From: Candidatus Mediterraneibacter vanvlietii
GTDB taxonomy: Bacteria > Bacillota > Clostridia > Lachnospirales > Lachnospiraceae
NCBI GenBank assembly: GCA_019113645.1
Contig: DXGZ01000027.1
Location: 11,461 to 75,460 of the forward strand
Length of the DNA: 64,000 nucleotides
Reading direction: 5' to 3'
The notes beneath the pieces are model-generated. The model was not told the DNA's origin, ran no database searches, and was given only the letters and a program-made list of their open reading frames with translations. Within the stretch, counting starts at the first letter, position 1. The number at the start of each line of letters is the position of its first letter. The translations under genes and the position numbers were made by a program. Shown here in pieces: positions 1,511 to 60,103 of this stretch.

Positions 1511-2577
1511 GCTATTTTGTTCACTACCTTCATTGACTGAACGTACGAAAACAGAGAGGTTTTTTAAGACGTATTCTGCAGGGAGTGAGGATGTGGGCGA
1601 GGCTCCGCTCCGGGGAATAAGGGCAACTAAGAAGTTCCGGGCACGGACTAAATACAAGGACAGACGGTGAGCAACTCGCTTCGCTCAGACAATCTCACCG
1701 CCTGTCCTGACGTCCGCACACGGAACTCCAAGTTGCGCTAATTCCCCTTCGAAGTCACCCCGCCCACATCCTCACTCTCTGCAGAAAGGTACTTGCAATA
1801 GAGTTCTGTTTTCTGCTCTATTCATATGGGAAGATAGTAACAATATAGCTGCAGTAACAAAGGCGCGGCCAGAAGATTTTACAAATGGTGATACCTTCAA
1901 GCCGCGCCGTTTCGCGGTTTTCCGAGTTTGTTTACAGAATAATCAGAGGCAAAAACAACAAAAGCAGAAGTGCGTGAAAAGCCGGAAGGTATTGTTAATA
2001 GTCAGGGCGGCAGCAAAGTTATGCTGCCGCCGGCGCTCATTATACTCCACAAAAACGAGGAATCAAGGTCGGGTAGTATTTCCTTCGGAAATCTCCACCC
2101 TTCCCCTGACTCCTCATTTTTGTTCTGAGACGCTTTCAATAATGATCCGGGAATAAATACACGTTGCCCATGCAAAACGGCGCGGCTTGAAGACCTTATT
2201 ATTTGTAAAACCTTCCGGCCGCGCCTTTGGTTTTCTTCAGCCTGTTTATTCATTAACTTCCCCTCTGAAGCGACCAGAAAACAGCCCCATTTCAAAATAC
2301 TTTCTGCGGGGAGGGGGATTGTGGGCGGCTGACTTCGGATGGGGATTAGTGAAACTTGGAGTGCCGGGGAGGGATGTTGGGGCAGACGGTGAGATTGTTT
2401 GAGCGAATGCGAGTTGCTCACCGTCTGTCTCTGCTTTTAGTCCGTCCCCGGAACTCCTTAGTTTCCCTTATCCCCTGAAGCGGAAGTCGAACACAGTCCC
2501 CCTCCCCGCAGAATACGTCTTGTAAAGCCACTCTGTTTTCGTCTGATCTGAATCCGGCAGTTGATGAACTAAATAGC
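1511..2577. repeat. ~1.07-kb non-coding nested palindrome, copy 1 of a family also present at 39521-40409
   Basis: Hairpin A is at 1576-1784. Hairpin A' at 2304-2511 is the reverse complement of A by eye. Inner hairpins are at 1862-1908 and 2179-2225, and the central hairpin is at 2006-2031. Terminal inverted repeats are gctattttgttc (1511) and gaactaaatagc (2566-2577). No ORF is shared with copy 2. Confidence 0.85.
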
Positions 2578-4939: not shown

Positions 4940-6229
4940 TTATTTCAGCGCTGATTCTCTGAAAATGATATCGTCTCTTCCCGGACCATTGCTGATCATC
5001 GTGAACGGATATCCAACTTCTTTTTCAATAAATTCAATATATTTCCGGCAGTTTTCCGGGAGTTCCTCGTAGTTTCTGATTCCGCGGATATCTGTCTTCC
5101 AGCCCGGCAGTTTCTCGATCACCGGTTTTGCCTTTTCAAGAAGATGAGTTACCGGGAATTCCTTCGTGATCTCACCATCGATCTCATATCCGACGCAGAC
5201 CGGGATCTCGTCAAGGTATCCGAGAACATCGAGTACAGTGAACGCCACGTCCGTTGTTCCCTGCATACGGAGTCCGTACTTGGATGCCACGCAGTCAAAC
5301 CAGCCCACACGTCTCGGGCGTCCTGTCGTAGCGCCGTACTCGCCGCCGTCGCCGCCGCGTCTTCTCAGCTCCTCAGCCTCTTCGCCGAAGATCTCGCTTA
5401 CAAACGCGCCCGCTCCAACCGCGCTGGAGTATGCCTTGCAGACTGTGATCACCTGCTTGATCTCATACGGCGGGATTCCTGCGCCGATCGCACCGTATGC
5501 TGCCAGTGTGGAAGAAGACGTAACCATCGGATAGATTCCGTGATCCGGATCCTTCAGGGAACCGAGCTGTCCTTCCAGAAGGATGTTCTTTCCTTCCTTT
5601 ATCGCATTGTGGAGGAAGAGGGAAACATCGCATACATACGGCTCCACCATCTCACGGTAGCTTACAAGTTCTTTATATAATTCATCAGGATCGATCAGAG
5701 GTTTATGGTAAAGGTGCTCAAGCAGCACGTTCTTCTGCTCGGAAACGCGCACTACCTTTTCTTTCAGAAGCTCATCGTCAAAGAGCTCGCTTACCTGAAA
5801 ACCAATCTTTGCATATTTGTCTGAATAGAAAGGTGCAATACCTGATTTGGTTGATCCGAACGATTTTCCGCCCAGACGCTCCTCCTCGTATGCGTCAAAA
5901 TTCTTGTGATAGGACATCACCATCTGTGCTCTGTCAGATACAAGAATCTTCGGCATCGGAACACCGCGGTCCACAATGGACTGGATCTCCTTAAAAAGAA
6001 CCGGAACATCAAGCGCAACGCCGTTTCCGATTACGCTTGTCGTATGTCCGTAAAACACTCCGGAAGGCAGCGTATGCAGCGCAAATTTGCCGTAATCATT
6101 TACGATCGTGTGGCCTGCGTTCGCACCGCCCTGAAAACGGACGATGATATCTGCTTCTTTTGCAAGCATATCAGTAATCTTGCCTTTTCCCTCATCGCCC
6201 CAGTTTGCACCAACTACTGCTTTTACCAT
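4940..6229 (-). CDS. purA: adenylosuccinate synthase
   Basis: 429 aa. N-terminus VVGANWGDEGKGKITD and GGANAGHT are PurA signatures. RBS is aggagg. Confidence 0.95.
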   Translation of the reverse strand: MVKAVVGANWGDEGKGKITDMLAKEADIIVRFQGGANAGHTIVNDYGKFALHTLPSGVFYGHTTSVIGNGVALDVPVLFKEIQSIVDRGVPMPKILVSDRAQMVMSYHKNFDAYEEERLGGKSFGSTKSGIAPFYSDKYAKIGFQVSELFDDELLKEKVVRVSEQKNVLLEHLYHKPLIDPDELYKELVSYREMVEPYVCDVSLFLHNAIKEGKNILLEGQLGSLKDPDHGIYPMVTSSSTLAAYGAIGAGIPPYEIKQVITVCKAYSSAVGAGAFVSEIFGEEAEELRRRGGDGGEYGATTGRPRRVGWFDCVASKYGLRMQGTTDVAFTVLDVLGYLDEIPVCVGYEIDGEITKEFPVTHLLEKAKPVIEKLPGWKTDIRGIRNYEELPENCRKYIEFIEKEVGYPFTMISNGPGRDDIIFRESALK

Positions 6230-6486
6230 TTTAATTCCTCCTGCGTATCGTGCTTCAAAATATAATTATGCGTCTCTTTTCCGGCTCCGCCCTGCGGGGT
6301 TCCGTCTGTCTGTATAAAAGACGCCGTTAGAATTATACTATAATTTTCAACTTATGTAAAATATTATTTCCTGTTTTTTACGTTGCTATTGTAATTAAAT
6401 GCGAAAAGTATTAGAATAAATAGCAAATTCGGGATGTCCTCTTTTTCTTTGCAGAGTGCATCTTCTCACAGAAAGGAGAGTTTACA

Positions 6487-10608: not shown

Positions 10609-10681
<73 letters not shown>

Positions 10682-16235: not shown

Positions 16236-16525
16236 AGTTTCCATTGAAACAAAAAAACTCCGCCTCTGACAAGAGACGAAGTTTATCCGCGGTTCCACTC
16301 TAATTAAAAGAATTGTTTCTTTCACTCAAACTGCCTGTAACGCCGGCAAAACGTATTCCGCTACTTTCAGATGTATTGCACGGTTCGATATGCATCACCT
16401 GGTTCGCGGAATCAGCTCACGGAGGCACTTCGCAGAACGTCGGCACGGGGAGGCTTTCAGCCGGTGGCGTCCCCTCTCTGAGAGCTTCGTGATCTGTTAC
16501 TCTTTCCGTTCATCGCCTTTCTGAA
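16236..16525 (-). promoter_or_regulatory. T-box leader (Cys specifier UGC) controlling cysE-cysS
   Basis: All elements read on the minus strand: an AGAGAG box, a distal-loop-like ggcugaaa, cguucUGCgaag in the specifier position (plus 16432-16434), the T-box sequence agaGUGGaACCGCGg (plus 16286-16300), and then the terminator cuucgucucuugucagaggcggag plus U7. Confidence 0.7.
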
Positions 16526-19167: not shown

Positions 19168-19241
19168 GGCGGAATAGCTCAGTTGGCTAGAGCACACGGT
19201 TCATACCCGTGGTGTCGCTGGTTCAAATCCAGTTTCCGCTA
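19168..19241 (+). tRNA. tRNA-Met (anticodon CAT, elongator-like)
   Basis: Hand-folded cloverleaf with anticodon arm CACGG-TTCATAC-CCGTG. It lacks the three consecutive G-C pairs in the anticodon stem that mark initiator tRNA. The anticodon arm resembles Bacillus elongator tRNA-Met. Confidence 0.85.
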
Positions 19242-20349: not shown

Positions 20350-20423
20350 TAGCGGAAACTGGATTTGAACCAGCGACACCACGGGTATGAACCGTGTGCT
20401 CTAGCCAACTGAGCTATTCCGCC
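20350..20423 (-). tRNA. tRNA-Met (anticodon CAT), identical to the copy at 19168-19241
   Basis: Its reverse complement matches the plus-strand copy at every one of the 74 positions when compared by eye. It shares the same 16-nt trailer and a similar terminator. Confidence 0.9.
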
Positions 20424-20437
20424 ATATCAGGTTTTTA

Positions 20438-20510
20438 TGGGGCCTATAGGGCTCGAACCTATGACCCTCTGCTTGTAAGGCAGATGCTCTCCCAGCTGAG
20501 CTAAGACCCC
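20438..20510 (-). tRNA. tRNA-Val (anticodon TAC)
   Basis: Hand-folded: acceptor GGGGTCT/AGGCCCC, anticodon arm TCTGC-CTTACAA-GCAGA, T loop TTCGAGC. Confidence 0.9.
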
Positions 20511-33946: not shown

Positions 33947-35278
33947 CTACAGATTCCTGTTGTCAATTACACGGACTGCTTTTCCTTCGCTTCTCTGAAT
34001 AGATTTCGGCTCAACCAGTTTCACTCTTACGGAAATACCAAGAGCAGTTTTTAATACGCCTGCAATCTTGTTCCTGAGTGCATCCAGTTTTCTGATCTCG
34101 TCAGAGAATACGGATTCATCTACTTCTACCATAACAGTAAGCACATCCATGTTATCCTCTCTGTCAACGATCATCATGTAGTGCGGAGCTACCACGCCTC
34201 CCATGGAAAGCAGTGCTGTTTCCACCTGAGTCGGGAATACATTCACGCCGCGGATTACTTTCATATCATCAGTTCTTCCTGTGAATTTCGAAATTCTCGG
34301 AAGCGTTCTTCCACATTCACACGTCTGGTAATTGATGCTTGTAAGGTCTTTTGTGCGATAGCGGATCAGAGGCATTGCCTCTTTCGCAAGAGTGGTAAAT
34401 ACCAGCTCGCCGGTCTCGCCCTCAGCACATCTCTCGTGCGTTGCCGGATGCAGCACTTCCGGATAGAAATAATCCCAGTGCACGTGAAGCCCTGATTTGT
34501 GGATACAATCCTGCGCAACGCCCGGGCCTGTGATCTCGCAAAGTCCGTAGATATCAAAGCAGTTAATGTGGAGGATACTCTCAATCTTCTTTCGCATCTC
34601 CTCTGTCCACGGTTCCGCTCCGTGAATACCTGCTTTTAACTTCATTTTATCTACCAGTCCGGCTTCCTGGATGGATTCGGCAAGATAAAGTGCGTAAGAC
34701 GGAGTACATGCGAATGCTGTAGCACCAAGATCCTCCATGCACATCATCTGGCGTTTCGTGTTGCCTGCCGACATCGGGATCGCCGTAGCGCCCAGTGCCT
34801 TTGCGCCGAAATCAAGGCCCAGACCTCCTGTGAAGAGTCCGTATCCGTAGCAGACATGGATGATATCTTCGTTCGTAAGTCCTGCCATCGTGAGTCCTCT
34901 CGCCACACACTCACCCCATACTTCCACATCTTTCTGGGAATATGGCGCGATGGTAAGCTTTCCTGTTGTGCCCGATGTTCCCTGAACACGAACAACATCT
35001 TTCATCGGAATCGCGAGAAGCCCGAACGGATAATTATTCTTCAGGTCTTCTTTCGTTGTGAACGGAAGCTTCTCGATATCTTCGATCGTCTTGATATCTC
35101 CTGGCTCCACGCCGCGCTCCTGCATTTTTTTACGGTAAAAATCCACATTGTTGTACACTCTGTTTACAACATCTACAAGCCTTTTGCTCTGCAGATCCGC
35201 CATCTCATCCCTGCTCATGCACTCTATTTTAGGATCGCGGATCCGCTCCACCCAGTTTTCTAATGATACTCCTGCCAT
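33947..35278 (-). CDS. paaK: phenylacetate--CoA ligase family protein (copy 1)
   Basis: 443 aa. The adenylate-forming motif TSGTTGK (GTSGTTGKLT) and the length and pattern match PaaK. Confidence 0.85.
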   Translation of the reverse strand: MAGVSLENWVERIRDPKIECMSRDEMADLQSKRLVDVVNRVYNNVDFYRKKMQERGVEPGDIKTIEDIEKLPFTTKEDLKNNYPFGLLAIPMKDVVRVQGTSGTTGKLTIAPYSQKDVEVWGECVARGLTMAGLTNEDIIHVCYGYGLFTGGLGLDFGAKALGATAIPMSAGNTKRQMMCMEDLGATAFACTPSYALYLAESIQEAGLVDKMKLKAGIHGAEPWTEEMRKKIESILHINCFDIYGLCEITGPGVAQDCIHKSGLHVHWDYFYPEVLHPATHERCAEGETGELVFTTLAKEAMPLIRYRTKDLTSINYQTCECGRTLPRISKFTGRTDDMKVIRGVNVFPTQVETALLSMGGVVAPHYMMIVDREDNMDVLTVMVEVDESVFSDEIRKLDALRNKIAGVLKTALGISVRVKLVEPKSIQRSEGKAVRVIDNRNL

Positions 35279-36362: not shown

Positions 36363-38108
36363 CTATTCCCCCTCCTTTACAAGTTCAATCGCGTCGAATT
36401 TACATAAGTCTTTACACAATCCGCAGCCGGTGCACATCGTATCATCAATACGGATCGTGCCGTCCGGGTTCTTTGTCATTGCCGGACATCCCGGTTTCAT
36501 ACATGCTCCGCACTTTTTACATTTATCAGGCAGAGCTCTGTAGAGCGGTTTTTTCCTCTTATCAAGAAGAACGCATGGAGTCTTTGTAATGATAACGGAA
36601 ATCTCATCCTTCGCCGTCTCCTCTTTTATCGTCTTCTCCAGAAGCGGAAGATCAAAAGCATTGATCTCGTACACATTTTTAATTCCCATGGCGCGGCAGA
36701 TTCCCGGGATACTGATCGCATATGTAGGATCGCCCTGCAGGGTTTTTCCGGTAGCTGCGTGATCCTGGTGTCCCGTCATTCCGGTTGTGGAATTATCGAG
36801 AATCATCACTGTACCGGTCGCTTTGTTATAAACCATATTCATCAGGGAATTCACGCCAGTATGCATGAACGTGGAATCTCCGATCACTGCTACCCAGTTT
36901 TTAATGTAGTCTTTTCCTTTTGCCTTCTCCATGCCATGAAGTGTGGAAATACTTGATCCCATACACATCGTTGTATCGATCACGCTCAAAGGTGCAACCG
37001 CACCGAGGGTATAGCATCCGATATCACCGGCAGCATGCATTTTCAGCTTGTTCAGCACATAGAACACGCTTCTGTGCGGACATCCCGGACAGAGGATCGG
37101 CGGTCTTCCCGGAGCCGCTGCCGGTTCTTTGATATCCAGCTTCTCTTTTAAGATTGCTTCTCTTAACATATTCGCGCTGTACTCACCCTGAACGGTCAGA
37201 ATCTCTTTTCCGACTGCTTTGATTCCCCAGGATTTCACCTGTTCTTCAATCACGGGATCCAGCTCTTCTACAATATATAACGTCTCAACTTTGGCAGCAA
37301 AGTCTTCAATCAGTTTTCTCGGAAGCGGATTCACCATTCCCAGCTTCAGAACAGAAGCATTCGGGAGCGCTTCCTTTACATACTGATACGGAATACCGCT
37401 TGTGATGACTCCGATCTTTGTATCATTCATTTCAACGCGGTTGATCGGAAGTGTATTGGCCTCTTCTGCCAGTTCGTTATTCCGTTTCTCGATCTCAACA
37501 TGACGGATCTTTGCATTGCCAGGCATCATAACATTTTTCTGAATGTTTTTCTCATAAGGTCTGTCTTCCGGCTCCACTCTCTCCTGAAGTTCCACAAGCC
37601 CCTGTGAGTGTGCAAGCCTCGTTGTTGTCCGGAAGATAAACGGACGGTCGAACTTCTCGCTCAGTTCAAACGCCGCCTTGAAGAAATCCTTTGCCTCCGC
37701 ACTGTCAGAAGGTTCGATAACAGGGATCTGCGCTGCTCTCGCCACCATTCTCGTGTCCTGTTCATTCTGGGAGCTGTAAAGTCCCGGGTCGTCTGCCACC
37801 ACGATGACAAGTCCGCCGTTTACGCCCATGTAAGAAACTGAATAGAGCGGGTCTGCTGCAACATTCAGCCCCACGTGCTTCATACAGGCCATGGATCTCA
37901 CACCTGCAAGGCTTGCGCCTACTGCAACCTCCGTTGCCACCTTCTCGTTCGGCGCCCACTCTTCATATACATCATCGCGGTACTGTACAAGGTATTCGCT
38001 GATTTCTGTACTCGGTGTTCCCGGATAAGCCGAAGACACCTTGACTCCCGCCTCATAAGCTCCCCGGGCAATCGCCTCATTGCCCAGCATAATCACTTTC
38101 TCTGCCAT
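36363..38108 (-). CDS. iorA: indolepyruvate ferredoxin oxidoreductase subunit alpha
   Basis: ~580 aa with a TPP-binding region (GDSTFMHTG) and a C-terminal 2x[4Fe-4S] ferredoxin motif (CKKCGACMKPGCP... CTGCGLCKDLC). I chose the ATG at 38108. Confidence 0.9.
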   Translation of the reverse strand: MAEKVIMLGNEAIARGAYEAGVKVSSAYPGTPSTEISEYLVQYRDDVYEEWAPNEKVATEVAVGASLAGVRSMACMKHVGLNVAADPLYSVSYMGVNGGLVIVVADDPGLYSSQNEQDTRMVARAAQIPVIEPSDSAEAKDFFKAAFELSEKFDRPFIFRTTTRLAHSQGLVELQERVEPEDRPYEKNIQKNVMMPGNAKIRHVEIEKRNNELAEEANTLPINRVEMNDTKIGVITSGIPYQYVKEALPNASVLKLGMVNPLPRKLIEDFAAKVETLYIVEELDPVIEEQVKSWGIKAVGKEILTVQGEYSANMLREAILKEKLDIKEPAAAPGRPPILCPGCPHRSVFYVLNKLKMHAAGDIGCYTLGAVAPLSVIDTTMCMGSSISTLHGMEKAKGKDYIKNWVAVIGDSTFMHTGVNSLMNMVYNKATGTVMILDNSTTGMTGHQDHAATGKTLQGDPTYAISIPGICRAMGIKNVYEINAFDLPLLEKTIKEETAKDEISVIITKTPCVLLDKRKKPLYRALPDKCKKCGACMKPGCPAMTKNPDGTIRIDDTMCTGCGLCKDLCKFDAIELVKEGE

Positions 38109-38109
38109 A

Positions 38110-39420
38110 TCATAAACCATCCTTTCGTAAATCAGTCACTCTTCTTGCCTTGCCCTCAAATCTCTGCAGTGTGTTCGGAGCCACCAGACGGATCTGCGTT
38201 GCAAGGCCGAGCTGTGATTTCAATGCGCGTTTAATCCGTGATTCCAGTTCGCTCAGTTTTGTATAACTGTCCAGAAGCCTGTCGTCAACCAGCTCCACAG
38301 TGATTGTCATAACGTCAAGCCGGTTCTTTCTCTCGACAAGGATCTCATAATGAGGTCCGATTTCTTCGATTTTCAGAAGCACTTCCTCTATCTGTGTCGG
38401 GAATACATTCACGCCTCTGATCACAAGCATGTCATCCGCACGGCCGGAAATATTCTCCATACGTACCGTTGTTCTGCCGCATTTACAAGGTTCATACATC
38501 AGGCGTGTCAGGTCTCCGGTACGATATCTGACAAGCGGAAGGGCTTCTTTGCCAAGGCAGGTTACAACCAGTTCCCCCAGTTCTCCCGGAGGAAGCACTT
38601 CCTCTGTCTCCGGATTGATGATCTCCGGTATAAACCAGTCTTCATTCACATGCATTCCACACAGCTCAGGACATTCTCCTGCAACCCCTGGTCCGCACAG
38701 TTCGCTCATTCCGTAATTCTGCGTACAGAGGAAATTCTCGCCCCAGACTTTGTGCATCTCGTCCCTCATAGCTTCTGTCATCCCTTCGCCTCCGAAGAGA
38801 CCGATATGAAGTTTAAGATCTTTTTCCGGGTCAAGTCCTCTCCTTCTGATCTCCTCGCCAAGATGAAGTGCATATGACGGTGTCGCGACAAGCAGCGTCA
38901 CTCCCATATCCTGCAGAAACATGATCTGTTTGTTCGTATTCCCCGAGGACATGGGAATCACAGACGCTCCGATTTTCTCCAGTCCTCCGTGGAGTCCCAG
39001 CGCTCCGGTAAATGTACCGTATCCGAACGAAATCTGAGCCACATCGTCCGCTGTCGCGCCGCCCATGCACGCAAGCCTTGCCACGTTGTTGAGCCACATA
39101 TCAAGATCATTTCTCGTATAGCCGACAACTGTTGGTTTTCCTGTCGTACCGGAGCTCGCATGATAGCGGACAATCTCTTTTTTGTCTACCGCAAACAGAC
39201 CGTCCGGATAATTGTCCCTGAAATCTGTTTTATATGTAAAGGGCAGTTTCTTCAGATCCTCCAGTGTATTTATATCTTGCGGCTTCACGCCCGCCGCATC
39301 CATCTTGGCACGGTATGGCTGCACTCTGTCATAAATATAGCGAACCGTATCCTTTAATTTCGATAGCTGGATCGCCTCAATCTCTTCTCTTGGCAGAGTT
39401 TCTTCCTTTGCCCATATCAT
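38110..39420 (-). CDS. paaK: phenylacetate--CoA ligase family protein (copy 2)
   Basis: SSGTTGKPT motif; paralogue of 33947-35278. I chose the ATG at 39420 (gaaggagg RBS). The ORF track extends to 39468. Confidence 0.85.
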   Translation of the reverse strand: MIWAKEETLPREEIEAIQLSKLKDTVRYIYDRVQPYRAKMDAAGVKPQDINTLEDLKKLPFTYKTDFRDNYPDGLFAVDKKEIVRYHASSGTTGKPTVVGYTRNDLDMWLNNVARLACMGGATADDVAQISFGYGTFTGALGLHGGLEKIGASVIPMSSGNTNKQIMFLQDMGVTLLVATPSYALHLGEEIRRRGLDPEKDLKLHIGLFGGEGMTEAMRDEMHKVWGENFLCTQNYGMSELCGPGVAGECPELCGMHVNEDWFIPEIINPETEEVLPPGELGELVVTCLGKEALPLVRYRTGDLTRLMYEPCKCGRTTVRMENISGRADDMLVIRGVNVFPTQIEEVLLKIEEIGPHYEILVERKNRLDVMTITVELVDDRLLDSYTKLSELESRIKRALKSQLGLATQIRLVAPNTLQRFEGKARRVTDLRKDGL

Positions 39421-39520: not shown

Positions 39521-40409
39521 AGCTATTTAGTTAATCAGGTTCGCTGACTTTTGGAGACGATATTTTCGAAAACAGGGAAGCATTCTAAAACGTATTCTGC
39601 AGAGGCTGAGGGTATGTTCAGGGCTCCGCTCCAGGGTCTAAGTGAATCTAAGAAGTTCCGGGCATGGACTAAATGCAAGGACAGCCGGCGAGCAACTCGC
39701 TTTGCTCAAACAATCTCGCCGTCTGCCCTAACGTCCATGTCCGGAACTTCAAGATTCACTAAGTCCCTTTCGAAGTCACCCTGCCCACACCCTCAACCTC
39801 AGCAGAAAGTTTCTTGAAATGGGGGCTGTTTTCTGCTTTATCGGCTGGGAAAGTCATCGAATAATCAACTGAGAAAAACAGAGGCGCGGCAGGAAAGCCT
39901 TACAATGTGTAAGTCCTTCAAGCCGCGCTGTATTGCGGTTTTCTAAGTCTATTTATAGAATGATCAGAGGGAAAAATGACAAAGGCGGAAGTGTACTGGA
40001 AATCAGAAGGTGTTGTTAATAATTAAGCCGGCAGCAAAACTATGCTGCCGGCCGCACTTTTGTTTTCTTCAGCCTGTTAGGCAGTAATTACCGATCTGGA
40101 TGGAACAGAAAACAGACCCTATTGCAAAAACTTTTCTGCCGGGAGGGAGACTGTGGGCGGCTGACTTCGGAGGGGGATTAGGCAAACTTGGAGTTCCGGG
40201 GAGGGACGTTGAGGCAGGCGGTGAGATTGTCTGAGCGTAGCGAGTTGCTCACCGTCTGTCTCTGCTTTTAGTCCGTCCCCGGAACTCCTTAGTTTCCCTT
40301 ATCCCCCGGAGCGGAAGCCGCCCACAATCCCCCTCCCGGCAGAATACGTCTTGTAAATCCACTCTGTTTTCGTCCGATTTGAAACCGGTAATTATTGAAC
40401 TAAATAGCT
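39521..40409. repeat. ~0.89-kb non-coding nested palindrome, copy 2 of the family at 1511-2577
   Basis: Alignable by eye to copy 1 end to end. Hairpin A is at 39597-39805 and hairpin A' at 40136-40342. The inner hairpin is at 39881-39928 and the central hairpin at 40027-40052. TIRs are agctatttagtt and aactaaatagct. It lacks the right-hand inner hairpin present in copy 1. Confidence 0.85.
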
Positions 40410-40539
40410 CCCCCCTTGACAAGGGTGCTATAGTATAGGTGTAACAGGAAACAAACACTTAACAACACCTGCTTTTAAGTACAAAGTGAATGGCTGCTAA
40501 GCGTAATTTCAATGATTCAGTGATTGGAGGAAAAGATAA

Positions 40540-59912: not shown

Positions 59913-59984
59913 AGGCGCAGACCGGATTTGAACCGGTGCATCAGGGTGTTGCAGACCCACGCCTTACCGCTTGGCTACTGCGCC
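59913..59984 (-). tRNA. tRNA-Cys (anticodon GCA)
   Basis: Hand-folded: acceptor GGCGCAG/CTGCGCC, 3-bp D stem, anticodon loop CTGCAAC, T arm ACCGG-TTCAAAT-CCGGT. It is followed on the minus strand by a terminator (cccgggaaattgatggttctcggg plus a T run). Confidence 0.85.
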
Positions 59985-60031
59985 ATATTATATTTTAAAC
60001 ACGCAGTGCATGAATCAGCACATGCGTGTAA

Positions 60032-60103
60032 TGACCCCGACGGGAATCGAACCCGTGTTACCGCCGTGAAAGGGCGATGTCTTAACCGCTTGACCACGGG
60101 GCC
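60032..60103 (-). tRNA. tRNA-Glu (anticodon TTC)
   Basis: Hand-folded: acceptor GGCCCCG/CGGGGTC, anticodon arm TCGCC-CTTTCAC-GGCGG, T arm ACGGG-TTCGATT-CCCGT. Confidence 0.85.

Follow-up and report, generated by a model that had tools for sequence, protein, structure and literature searches.

Repetitive extragenic palindromic (REP) sequences of about 20-40 nt carry a conserved 5' GTAG-type tetranucleotide, and REPINs are mobilised by RAYT tyrosine/HUH transposases. The attC sites of integrons are imperfect palindromes that are recognised in folded form on one strand, with structure and extrahelical bases conserved over sequence, and they allow seamless cassette-like exchange. Eukaryotic foldback transposons such as FB and Galileo have long, structured inverted arms, are mostly non-coding and occur at rearrangement breakpoints. 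In REPINs, the replicating unit is an inverted pair of hairpin-forming repeats that can adopt a long-hairpin or 'clover' fold, and a single-stranded form has been proposed (PMC3116915). The bcr1 element of the Bacillus cereus group, of about 155 bp and flanked by 5-bp direct repeats, is transcribed into a two-hairpin RNA with compensatory changes (PMC3184786). Here we describe two copies of a nested palindrome in a 64,000-nt stretch of Candidatus Mediterraneibacter vanvlietii (the window; assembly GCA_019113645.1, contig DXGZ01000027.1, positions 11,461 to 75,460), copy 1 at 1510-2578 (1069 bp) and copy 2 at 39521-40409 (889 bp). Both are members of one non-coding, multi-copy foldback repeat family bounded by terminal inverted repeats (TIRs). 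On balance, we favour the explanation that these are non-autonomous foldback elements, moved or exchanged in trans, whose hairpins are under strand-specific structural selection as single strands.

The family resembles bcr1, ERIC and the Correia/NEMIS elements in being non-coding, dispersed, intergenic and TIR-bounded, and bcr1 is likewise found in Firmicutes. However, miniature inverted-repeat transposable elements (MITEs) are generally under 200-400 bp, whereas the present elements measure 597-1069 bp, with arms that are hairpins of about 265 nt; only the single unit of about 340 bp has a size typical of MITEs. They also show no flanking direct repeat, or target-site duplication (TSD), and carry a terminator-like hairpin between the arms, so that, of the marks of a classical MITE mobilised by a DDE transposase, the TIRs are present and the TSD is not, and the whole elements exceed the usual size. 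With REPINs the family shares an inverted hairpin doublet, palindromes nested within a palindrome and two alternative folds, but its hairpins, at 264-269 nt, are roughly ten times longer than a short REP and it has true TIRs. The absence of a TSD would fit elements derived from IS200/IS605, whereas the TIRs and the hairpins on opposite strands do not. Integron attC sites span 57-141 nt, against 265-340 nt here, and the family is without their R/L core boxes (RYYYAAC / GTTRRRY), cassette open reading frames (ORFs), array and nearby integrase. FB and Galileo differ in being eukaryotic, kilobase-scale and TSD-forming, and no homology is implied. That hairpins of bacterial repeats are maintained by compensatory changes is already on record (PMC3184786, PMC3116915), and the phenomenon is real but not new in kind. 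A preliminary description of this DNA, which had called the maintained pairing unexplained biology, thus overstated the case for what is a dispersed, TIR-bounded repeat family. In the literature searched we found no description of this family, and neither its size and compound architecture nor its strand polarity and junction-exact exchange without TSD appear to be described there.

Architecture of the family and of the two copies in the window

The building block of the family is a unit of about 340 bp, composed of an outer TIR, a spacer of about 22-24 nt, an imperfect hairpin of 262-269 nt bounded by GAAAACAG...CTGTTTTC, a further spacer and an inverted internal TIR-like sequence that pairs with the outer TIR. 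Two such units, in inverted orientation, stand on either side of a conserved terminator-like hairpin (B) to make the whole element. The common form, type I (756-771 bp), is found in the other Mediterraneibacter genome and in the window's own species; it consists of a unit with hairpin HP-L (a distant homologue of hairpin A, in left-hand orientation), hairpin B and a unit with hairpin A'. Type II (about 1040-1070 bp) comprises unit A, hairpin B, a centre of 263 bp, hairpin B' and unit A'. To type II belong copy 1 and the loci L034, L035, L038 and L024 (L-numbers label the 113 fetched loci), and copy 2 and L026-L032 are type II elements carrying a deletion of about 189 bp. The TIRs are 14-19 bp long, with the consensus CAGCTATWWAGTTCA. 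Eleven complete copies, 597-1069 bp long and in unrelated contexts, have the ends C/AGCTATWWAGTTCA...TGAACTWWATAGCT/G (a slash marks the junction), and none of the 11 has a flanking direct repeat.

Hairpin B is the part of the element with the highest sequence conservation. Its stem is GC-rich, and its U-tract (CCUUUGGUUUUCUUC, CCUCUGUUUUUCUC or CUUCUUUUG) lies on the same strand as A'. With folding energies of -29 to -32 kcal/mol, it has the sequence features of an intrinsic terminator; in copy 1, an A-tract upstream makes the terminator-like structure two-way. A single long palindrome pairing left with right was rejected as the conserved structure, because the arms of type I are too diverged to pair and fold locally. 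Over the apical 38 nt, complementarity between the two type I arms still reaches 92%. In copy 2 the arms are paired with each other in the minimum-energy fold, and in the window copies complementarity between the arms is 73-87% versus 94% for the local stems. Several members deviate from these plans: L012 (4611-5207) and L025 (6957-7587) have symmetric apical deletions of the left hairpin, L079 (1888-2092) is a truncated copy that retains half a hairpin, and in L008 (3888-4300), also truncated, an A hairpin is fused to a short HP-L-like hairpin.

In pairwise alignment the two window copies are colinear from TIR to TIR with 82% column identity, which bears out the by-eye alignment of the preliminary description by the formal comparison that it proposed, and the compensatory pairs that it listed are all present. 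In the central hairpin, GGCGGCAGC/GCTGCCGCC of copy 1 (2006-2014 / 2023-2031) corresponds to GCCGGCAGC/GCTGCCGGC of copy 2 (40027-40035 / 40044-40052), one G:C pair having become C:G as claimed. At the middle of the hairpin A stem, copy 1 pairs GCAACT (1623-28) to AGTTGC (1731-36), and copy 2 pairs GTGAATCT to AGATTCAC; here the substitutions on both arms stand, as three paired substitutions in the hairpin alignment, but the 1-nt insertion proposed for both arms is not needed. The third reported site, CACGGAC/GTCCG in copy 1 and CATGGAC/GTCCATG in copy 2, was likewise recovered, and its A·C mismatch on the + strand of copy 1 is a G·U pair on the - strand. Copy 2 was also correctly said to be without hairpin B', which is removed by a single gap of 189 columns at about positions 2036-2224 of copy 1. 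Between the copies, the right-arm hairpins are 88% identical and the left-arm hairpins 78%. Only these two copies matched the repeat patterns in the window, and shuffled sequence gave zero matches; fold z-scores were -14 to -29, and an nhmmer profile search recovered exactly four hairpins in the window (E-values 1e-79 to 1e-81). Neither copy contains a credible ORF or a coding signal.

Copy 2 ends in AGCTATTTAGTT (39521-39532) and AACTAAATAGCT (40398-40409). Its left TIR (39521-39534) reads AGCTATTTAGTTAA, against the family consensus C/AGCTATWWAGTTCA, and its right TIR (40396-40409) reads TGAACTAAATAGCT. The left arm is hairpin A (39568-39833, 266 nt, bounded by GAAAACAG...CTGTTTTC), which folds best on the - strand, outward to paaK, and has eight G·T against one A·C in reverse-complement orientation. 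It is followed by the terminator-like hairpin B (39883-39929, - strand; GGCGCGGC...GCCGCGC[CT]), whose - strand U-tract lies at about 39870-39882, and by a centre (39937-40100) without B', which is related to the first 122 nt or so of the copy 1 centre and holds the central hairpin (40027-40052) and the deletion junction (about 40056-40060). The right arm is hairpin A' (40108-40371, 264 nt), which folds best on the + strand, outward to the L25 gene, with the apex GCGTAGC.

Copy 1 has a degenerate left end (CGCTATTTTGTT, 1510/1511-1522; TIR 1510-1523, CGCTATTTTGTTCA), and its right TIR (2565-2578) reads TGAACTAAATAGCT, as in copy 2. Hairpin A (1547-1813, 267 nt) folds best on the - strand, and an internal TIR-like sequence at 1837-1851 (reverse complement CAGCTATATTGTTAC) closes the left unit of about 340 bp (1510-1851). 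Hairpin B (1858-1915, - strand) is followed by the 263-bp centre (1916-2178), which is limited to the variant with two A arms and includes the central hairpin at 2006-2031, and by hairpin B' (2172-2229, + strand) with its U-tract TTTGGTTTTCTTC. A degenerate internal TIR-like sequence lies at 2241-2260 (CAGCCTGTTTATTCATTAAC); the equivalent point in L024 holds an IS110-family element. Hairpin A' (2277-2540, 264 nt) folds best on the + strand.

Paired substitutions and strand polarity of the hairpins

Sixteen hairpins, taken from the window and from related gut genomes, were aligned in a common orientation and folded as an alignment, which gave 88 stem pairs; 500 shuffles and slid partners served as controls. 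Pairs changed on both sides numbered 31 of the 88, compared to 17.1 ± 2.3 in the shuffles and 3-7 with slid partners. Cells in standard pairs amounted to 97.6% (89.8% shuffled, 37-50% slid), and the covariation score was 0.301 (0.148 and 0.043-0.074, respectively). None of the 500 shuffles reached the observed values, and at columns 120/151 all four Watson-Crick pair types occur. The selection on structure that the preliminary description had suggested is therefore upheld: covariation did not sink to background once more copies were aligned, the outcome named beforehand as speaking against it, but stayed well above both controls.

The same description had offered arm-to-arm gene conversion as a second possibility. 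In the identity matrix, however, the two arms within one element are 74-76% identical and no closer than arms of different elements, which excludes arm-to-arm homogenisation; arms are only 73-78% identical to each other, yet each is about 97% paired internally. The hairpins also keep their imperfections. A T·T mismatch at columns 108/163 and an A·G mismatch at 24/250 are each present in 15 of the 16 instances, and a 5-nt bulge at 166-170 and two 4x4 internal loops are conserved across arms that are only about 74% identical. Such conserved imperfections argue against blind correction of a palindrome and for a specific shape.

Each hairpin also has a preferred strand. In right-arm orientation, G·T combinations fill 111 cells and A·C combinations 12, and counting symmetric internal loops as pairs leaves the ratio near 4:1. 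When both strands of the type I alignment were folded separately, HP-L was better on the - strand (-131 versus -108 kcal/mol; G·T 65, A·C 10), A' on the + strand (-150 versus -121 kcal/mol; G·T 95, A·C 5) and B on the + strand (G·T 36, A·C 4). In every element, the favoured strand of each hairpin runs 5'→3' towards the nearer terminus. Its apex is a GNA-type loop (GCGAAGC, GCGTAGC, GCGCAGC or GCGAAAGC), and d(GCGAAGC) is an unusually stable DNA mini-hairpin. An orientation-specific profile scored 261-269 bits, against 65-82 bits in the reverse orientation. The strand preference of each hairpin shows that the single-stranded form matters, be it RNA or DNA.

These results bear directly on a neutral explanation, in which the element is merely a DNA palindrome whose pairing is kept by quasipalindrome template switching or by gene conversion between copies, with no selection on a single-stranded form. 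Some features of the family would suit it. The apical hairpin deletions in L012 and L025 are typical of palindrome instability, copy 2 has an internal deletion, and the copies are mosaic, with recombination among them at conserved internal blocks: L026 and copy 2 are identical at the base of A' and differ in blocks near its apex, and types I and II at fprA switch just after B. Templated correction, however, would erase imperfections, yet the mismatches, bulge and internal loops are kept, and the arms within an element are not homogenised. It also predicts G·T and A·C in equal numbers, whereas recent variants (those in three or fewer sequences) show about 29 pair positions with G·T and 7 with A·C in a hand count from the pair table. 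We therefore consider the neutral explanation very improbable.

Occurrence, junctions and the search for a partner

We searched for the family with a conserved 21-mer from the hairpin apex, in one genome per species, and by BLAST. Its hosts are gut Lachnospiraceae, Blautia and Mediterraneibacter, of the chicken and human gut. Real copies were confined to Lachnospiraceae in both searches, the carriers in the 21-mer scan being two uncultured Mediterraneibacter genomes, two chicken Candidatus Blautia species and one Clostridiales genome. One Mediterraneibacter genome has at least 10 separate copies, its hairpins occurring at 11 places on 10 contigs, and contig ends are a frequent location of copies. 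A metagenome scan for the TIRs returned 46 loci, of which 10 were true non-coding members, mostly on human-gut contigs. A phage or plasmid origin was discarded, as copy 2 had no blastn match in phage and plasmid collections; the hairpin pattern likewise had zero matches in viral contigs, and the viral-contig loci matching the hairpin B pattern held no family element by BLAST. At the Metallophos-L25 site of a third species, L110 (2618-3390) is another subfamily member, with a diverged A-type arm and B, a second hairpin of unrelated sequence and slightly different junctions.

In sister species whose FprA or L25 proteins are 88-91% identical, the ArsC-fprA and Metallophos-L25 intergenic regions measure about 180-220 bp and have no element. 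The empty allele at the L25 site reads ...GTAAATC/ACCCCTTGACA and the occupied allele ...AAATGTTC/CGCTATTT...AAATAGCT/CCCCCCTTGACA, a comparison that shows no target duplication. A target motif shared by the flanks was sought and dismissed: beyond the first base outside the element, a G at 25 of 27 ends, they had only occasional TIR-like sequences in common.

The gene on the far side of the element varies among contigs of the window's species, long-read ones included, with the arrangements paaK-element-SHMT, L25-element-Metallophos, MerR or MatE, and fprA-element-ArsC. At copy 2, homology of conspecific contigs with the window ends exactly at the right terminus, 40409. Gene order in the window differs from conspecific metagenome contigs (L026-L046) at 40409/40410, 1922/1923 and 1510; elsewhere paaK stands with SHMT/PolC, fprA with ArsC and L25 with Metallophos/NYN/NadA, the last being also the arrangement in the element-free sister species. 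Both copies thus appear to mark rearrangements of the window's genome. The L25 junction occurs with at least four different arm types and the Metallophos junction with three. These three all end AGCG/GAAC, whereas the same arm types end AGCT elsewhere; exchange thus leaves the outermost base with the flank, and its boundary lies at or just inside ...ATAGC/N. Beyond this boundary the arm types share only 7 nt, which we judge too short for ordinary homologous recombination; the boundary thus points to an enzyme acting at the terminus.

One way to read these junctions is as inverton- or shufflon-like modules, in which the TIRs would be core sites of a recombinase encoded elsewhere that inverts copies and shuffles arms and chromosome segments. 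The position of the exchange boundary inside or at the TIR, with the last base left to the flank, would agree with this, as would synteny breaks exactly at the termini, the absence of a TSD, the internal TIR-like copies and the finding that type I faces the L25 gene with either end (L108 versus L036 and L037). Invertons, however, occur in both orientations, whereas a single one was seen in the conspecific contigs spanning paaK (7) and fprA (5) and in the Metallophos-L25 contigs, with no inversion in place, although minor orientations may occur within populations. Moreover, no recombinase gene lies next to any copy, the constant strand polarity of each hairpin means that single units do not flip, and the many copies in unrelated contexts, together with the empty orthologous sites, would also require an insertion step. 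This explanation is unlikely in our view, if less so than the neutral one.

The junctions also allow a more specific form of mobility. The unit of about 340 bp could be a giant recombination site that works as folded single-stranded DNA, like attC or a REPIN but some ten times larger, with a strand-specific enzyme of HUH or tyrosine type cutting at ...ATAGC/N and inserting and swapping whole arms seamlessly without a TSD. We regard this as a tentative idea, possible rather than probable. If it held, arms would be swapped at fixed intergenic junctions, just upstream of promoters or after stop codons, and gene neighbourhoods would be rewired between gut Lachnospiraceae strains.

No gene for a recombinase, RAYT, IS200-like protein, invertase or integrase adjoins the element copies. 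An insertion sequence with the same TIRs was found neither in the window, nor in the 113 loci, nor in the metagenome TIR scan (whole genomes were not covered), and none of the 10 true members from that scan has a transposase between its TIRs. Three candidate partners were considered and rejected. The IS256-type element of L109 has ends (CAAAGTTTGTGTAAAC) unrelated to the element TIR; it is an IS256-family (Transposase_mut) insertion at 5213-6460 that L108, colinear in other respects, does not have. The IS110-family gene in L024, a Candidatus Blautia pullicola contig, belongs to an element (330-1913) inserted into a type II copy at a point equivalent to about 2244-2248 of the window, and its ends are unrelated to those of the repeat; it encodes a transposase of 411 aa (Pfam DEDD_Tnp_IS110 and Transposase_20). 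The point of this insertion is the internal TIR-like motif (CAGCCTGTTTA/.../TTTAGACAG), flanked by TTTA on either side, which suggests that the IS110-type element targets the repeat's own TIR-like sequence. The AAA-ATPase/PDDEXK_9 gene of L013 (5752-7422; a 556-aa AAA-ATPase_like and PDDEXK_9 protein) stands beside a lone terminal remnant with no second TIR; the remnant, of about 45 nt (5612-5660; CAGCTATAAAGTTCAATGAC...), is 90 bp upstream of the gene. A single weak tblastn match to an IS200-type TnpA sequence (L004 5528-5650; 41 aa, 41% identity, E = 1e-4) lies at a contig end, 5.3 kb from the element fragment that starts the contig, an association that is probably coincidental.

Transcription, the recognised form and implications

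Genes that point away from the element, fprA and paaK among them, are preceded by -35/-10-like sites of their own, 8-35 nt beyond the terminus, and genes pointing towards it stop 1-15 nt from the terminus. The element thus fills the whole intergenic space, and it probably supplies termination for the convergent genes. Consensus scans for internal promoters yielded none conserved between copies. The distances given earlier for the two window copies were accurate (124 bp from 1510 to the fprA start at 1386, and 101 bp from 39521 to the paaK start at 39420), but this spacing of 100-125 bp is promoter plus leader. A regulatory link to fprA or paaK, as the preliminary description had envisaged, is therefore unsupported, with the promoters outside the element, a far-side gene that varies among strains and sister species that lack the element. 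In annotation, the element is best labelled as a repeat and not as a regulator of either gene.

Around these genes, two further observations were made. Downstream of paaK, two stretches of the - strand (33956-35230 and 36363-38120) hold the gene of a further PaaK-like ligase, which shares 46% identity with the one at 38110-39420, and genes of pyruvate/indolepyruvate-ferredoxin-oxidoreductase type, and the region looks like an aryl-acid CoA-ligase/oxidoreductase cluster. Between the copy 2 terminus and the -35 box (TTGACA) of L25 lies a C-run (window 40410-40415) that varies from 5 to 9 C in occupied contigs (L034-L041, L108-L112) and has 4 C in the empty allele of the sister species; either the homopolymer truly varies or the assemblies are noisy here.

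The closeness of the convergent genes lends weight to a function at the RNA level. Here, arms with B would be transcribed on the favoured outward strand or co-transcribed with neighbours. The long hairpin could then terminate or insulate transcription, stabilise the ends of mRNAs, be cut by RNase III or, like RNA-OUT, act in antisense on an unseen transposase, and mobility would be incidental or past. G·U pairs are in excess on one strand of every hairpin, the apical loops on the favoured strand are GNA/GNRA-like, the GC-rich hairpin B carries its U-tract on the strand of A', and where convergent genes stop 1-15 nt from the terminus the terminator must come from the element. The transcribed bcr1, with a two-hairpin RNA structure kept by compensatory changes, is a precedent (PMC3184786). 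Several observations fit RNA poorly, however. No conserved internal promoter serves the favoured strands, transcripts of the + strand would terminate at B before reaching A', transcription entering from neighbouring genes copies the nearest arm in the orientation that is not favoured, the promoters of the flanking genes lie outside the element, and orthologous sites in sister species do without it. A known RNA family was also searched for and set aside: for the element, neither the window scanned at Rfam gathering scores nor the two copies scanned permissively gave a match at threshold, the only hits being to plant MIR1437 and MIR1858, generic long hairpins, at 39-55 bits versus thresholds of 137-168. 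The window scan did return a T-box leader and six tRNA genes (16269-16522 on the - strand, 10609-10681, 19168-19241, 20350-20510 and 59913-60103), which are ordinary and have no relation to the repeat. Because of its G·U pairs, the U-tract of B and the bcr1 precedent, RNA is a serious rival, although we hold it to be the less probable explanation.

Returning to the trans-mobilised foldback element that we favour, an enzyme acting in trans would move or exchange the element, cutting at the terminus ...ATAGC/N and recognising the hairpins in their single-stranded, folded form. Folded single-stranded DNA during mobilisation is slightly more likely than RNA to be that form, a leaning that rests on the absence of a TSD, the junction-exact exchange, the lack of a promoter, the conserved bulges and the mini-hairpin apex. 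Hairpin B, and possibly the large hairpins too, may secondarily act as terminators or insulators for tightly abutting genes. Several points weigh against this explanation. No autonomous copy or candidate transposase was found in the 113 loci or in viral, plasmid and phage collections, and no excision product, circle junction or within-species difference in presence was seen. A clean comparison of empty and occupied alleles was possible at one site only, and between species, and there the exact insertion point is hard to place, owing to intergenic divergence and 14 extra nt on one side. Some of the differences across strains come from short-read metagenome assemblies, though the long-read contigs agree. 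The strand bias could stem in part from mutation bias linked to the element and not from selection, and the G·U pairs, the GNA loops and the U-tract after B would suit RNA equally well.

If the explanation that we favour is true, abundant gut Firmicutes carry a large, uncatalogued repeat family, one that breaks short-read assemblies, in which many contigs end inside the element, and that marks points of gene-order difference between closely related strains. The family would be unlike a textbook MITE, with no target duplication, precise exchange of junctions and strand-specific hairpins of about 265 nt, and identifying its enzyme could uncover a new mechanism for inserting or exchanging DNA seamlessly. 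Should they function at the RNA level, the hairpins would rank with the longest conserved hairpin modules of bacterial intergenic DNA, and would provide a portable terminator or insulator.

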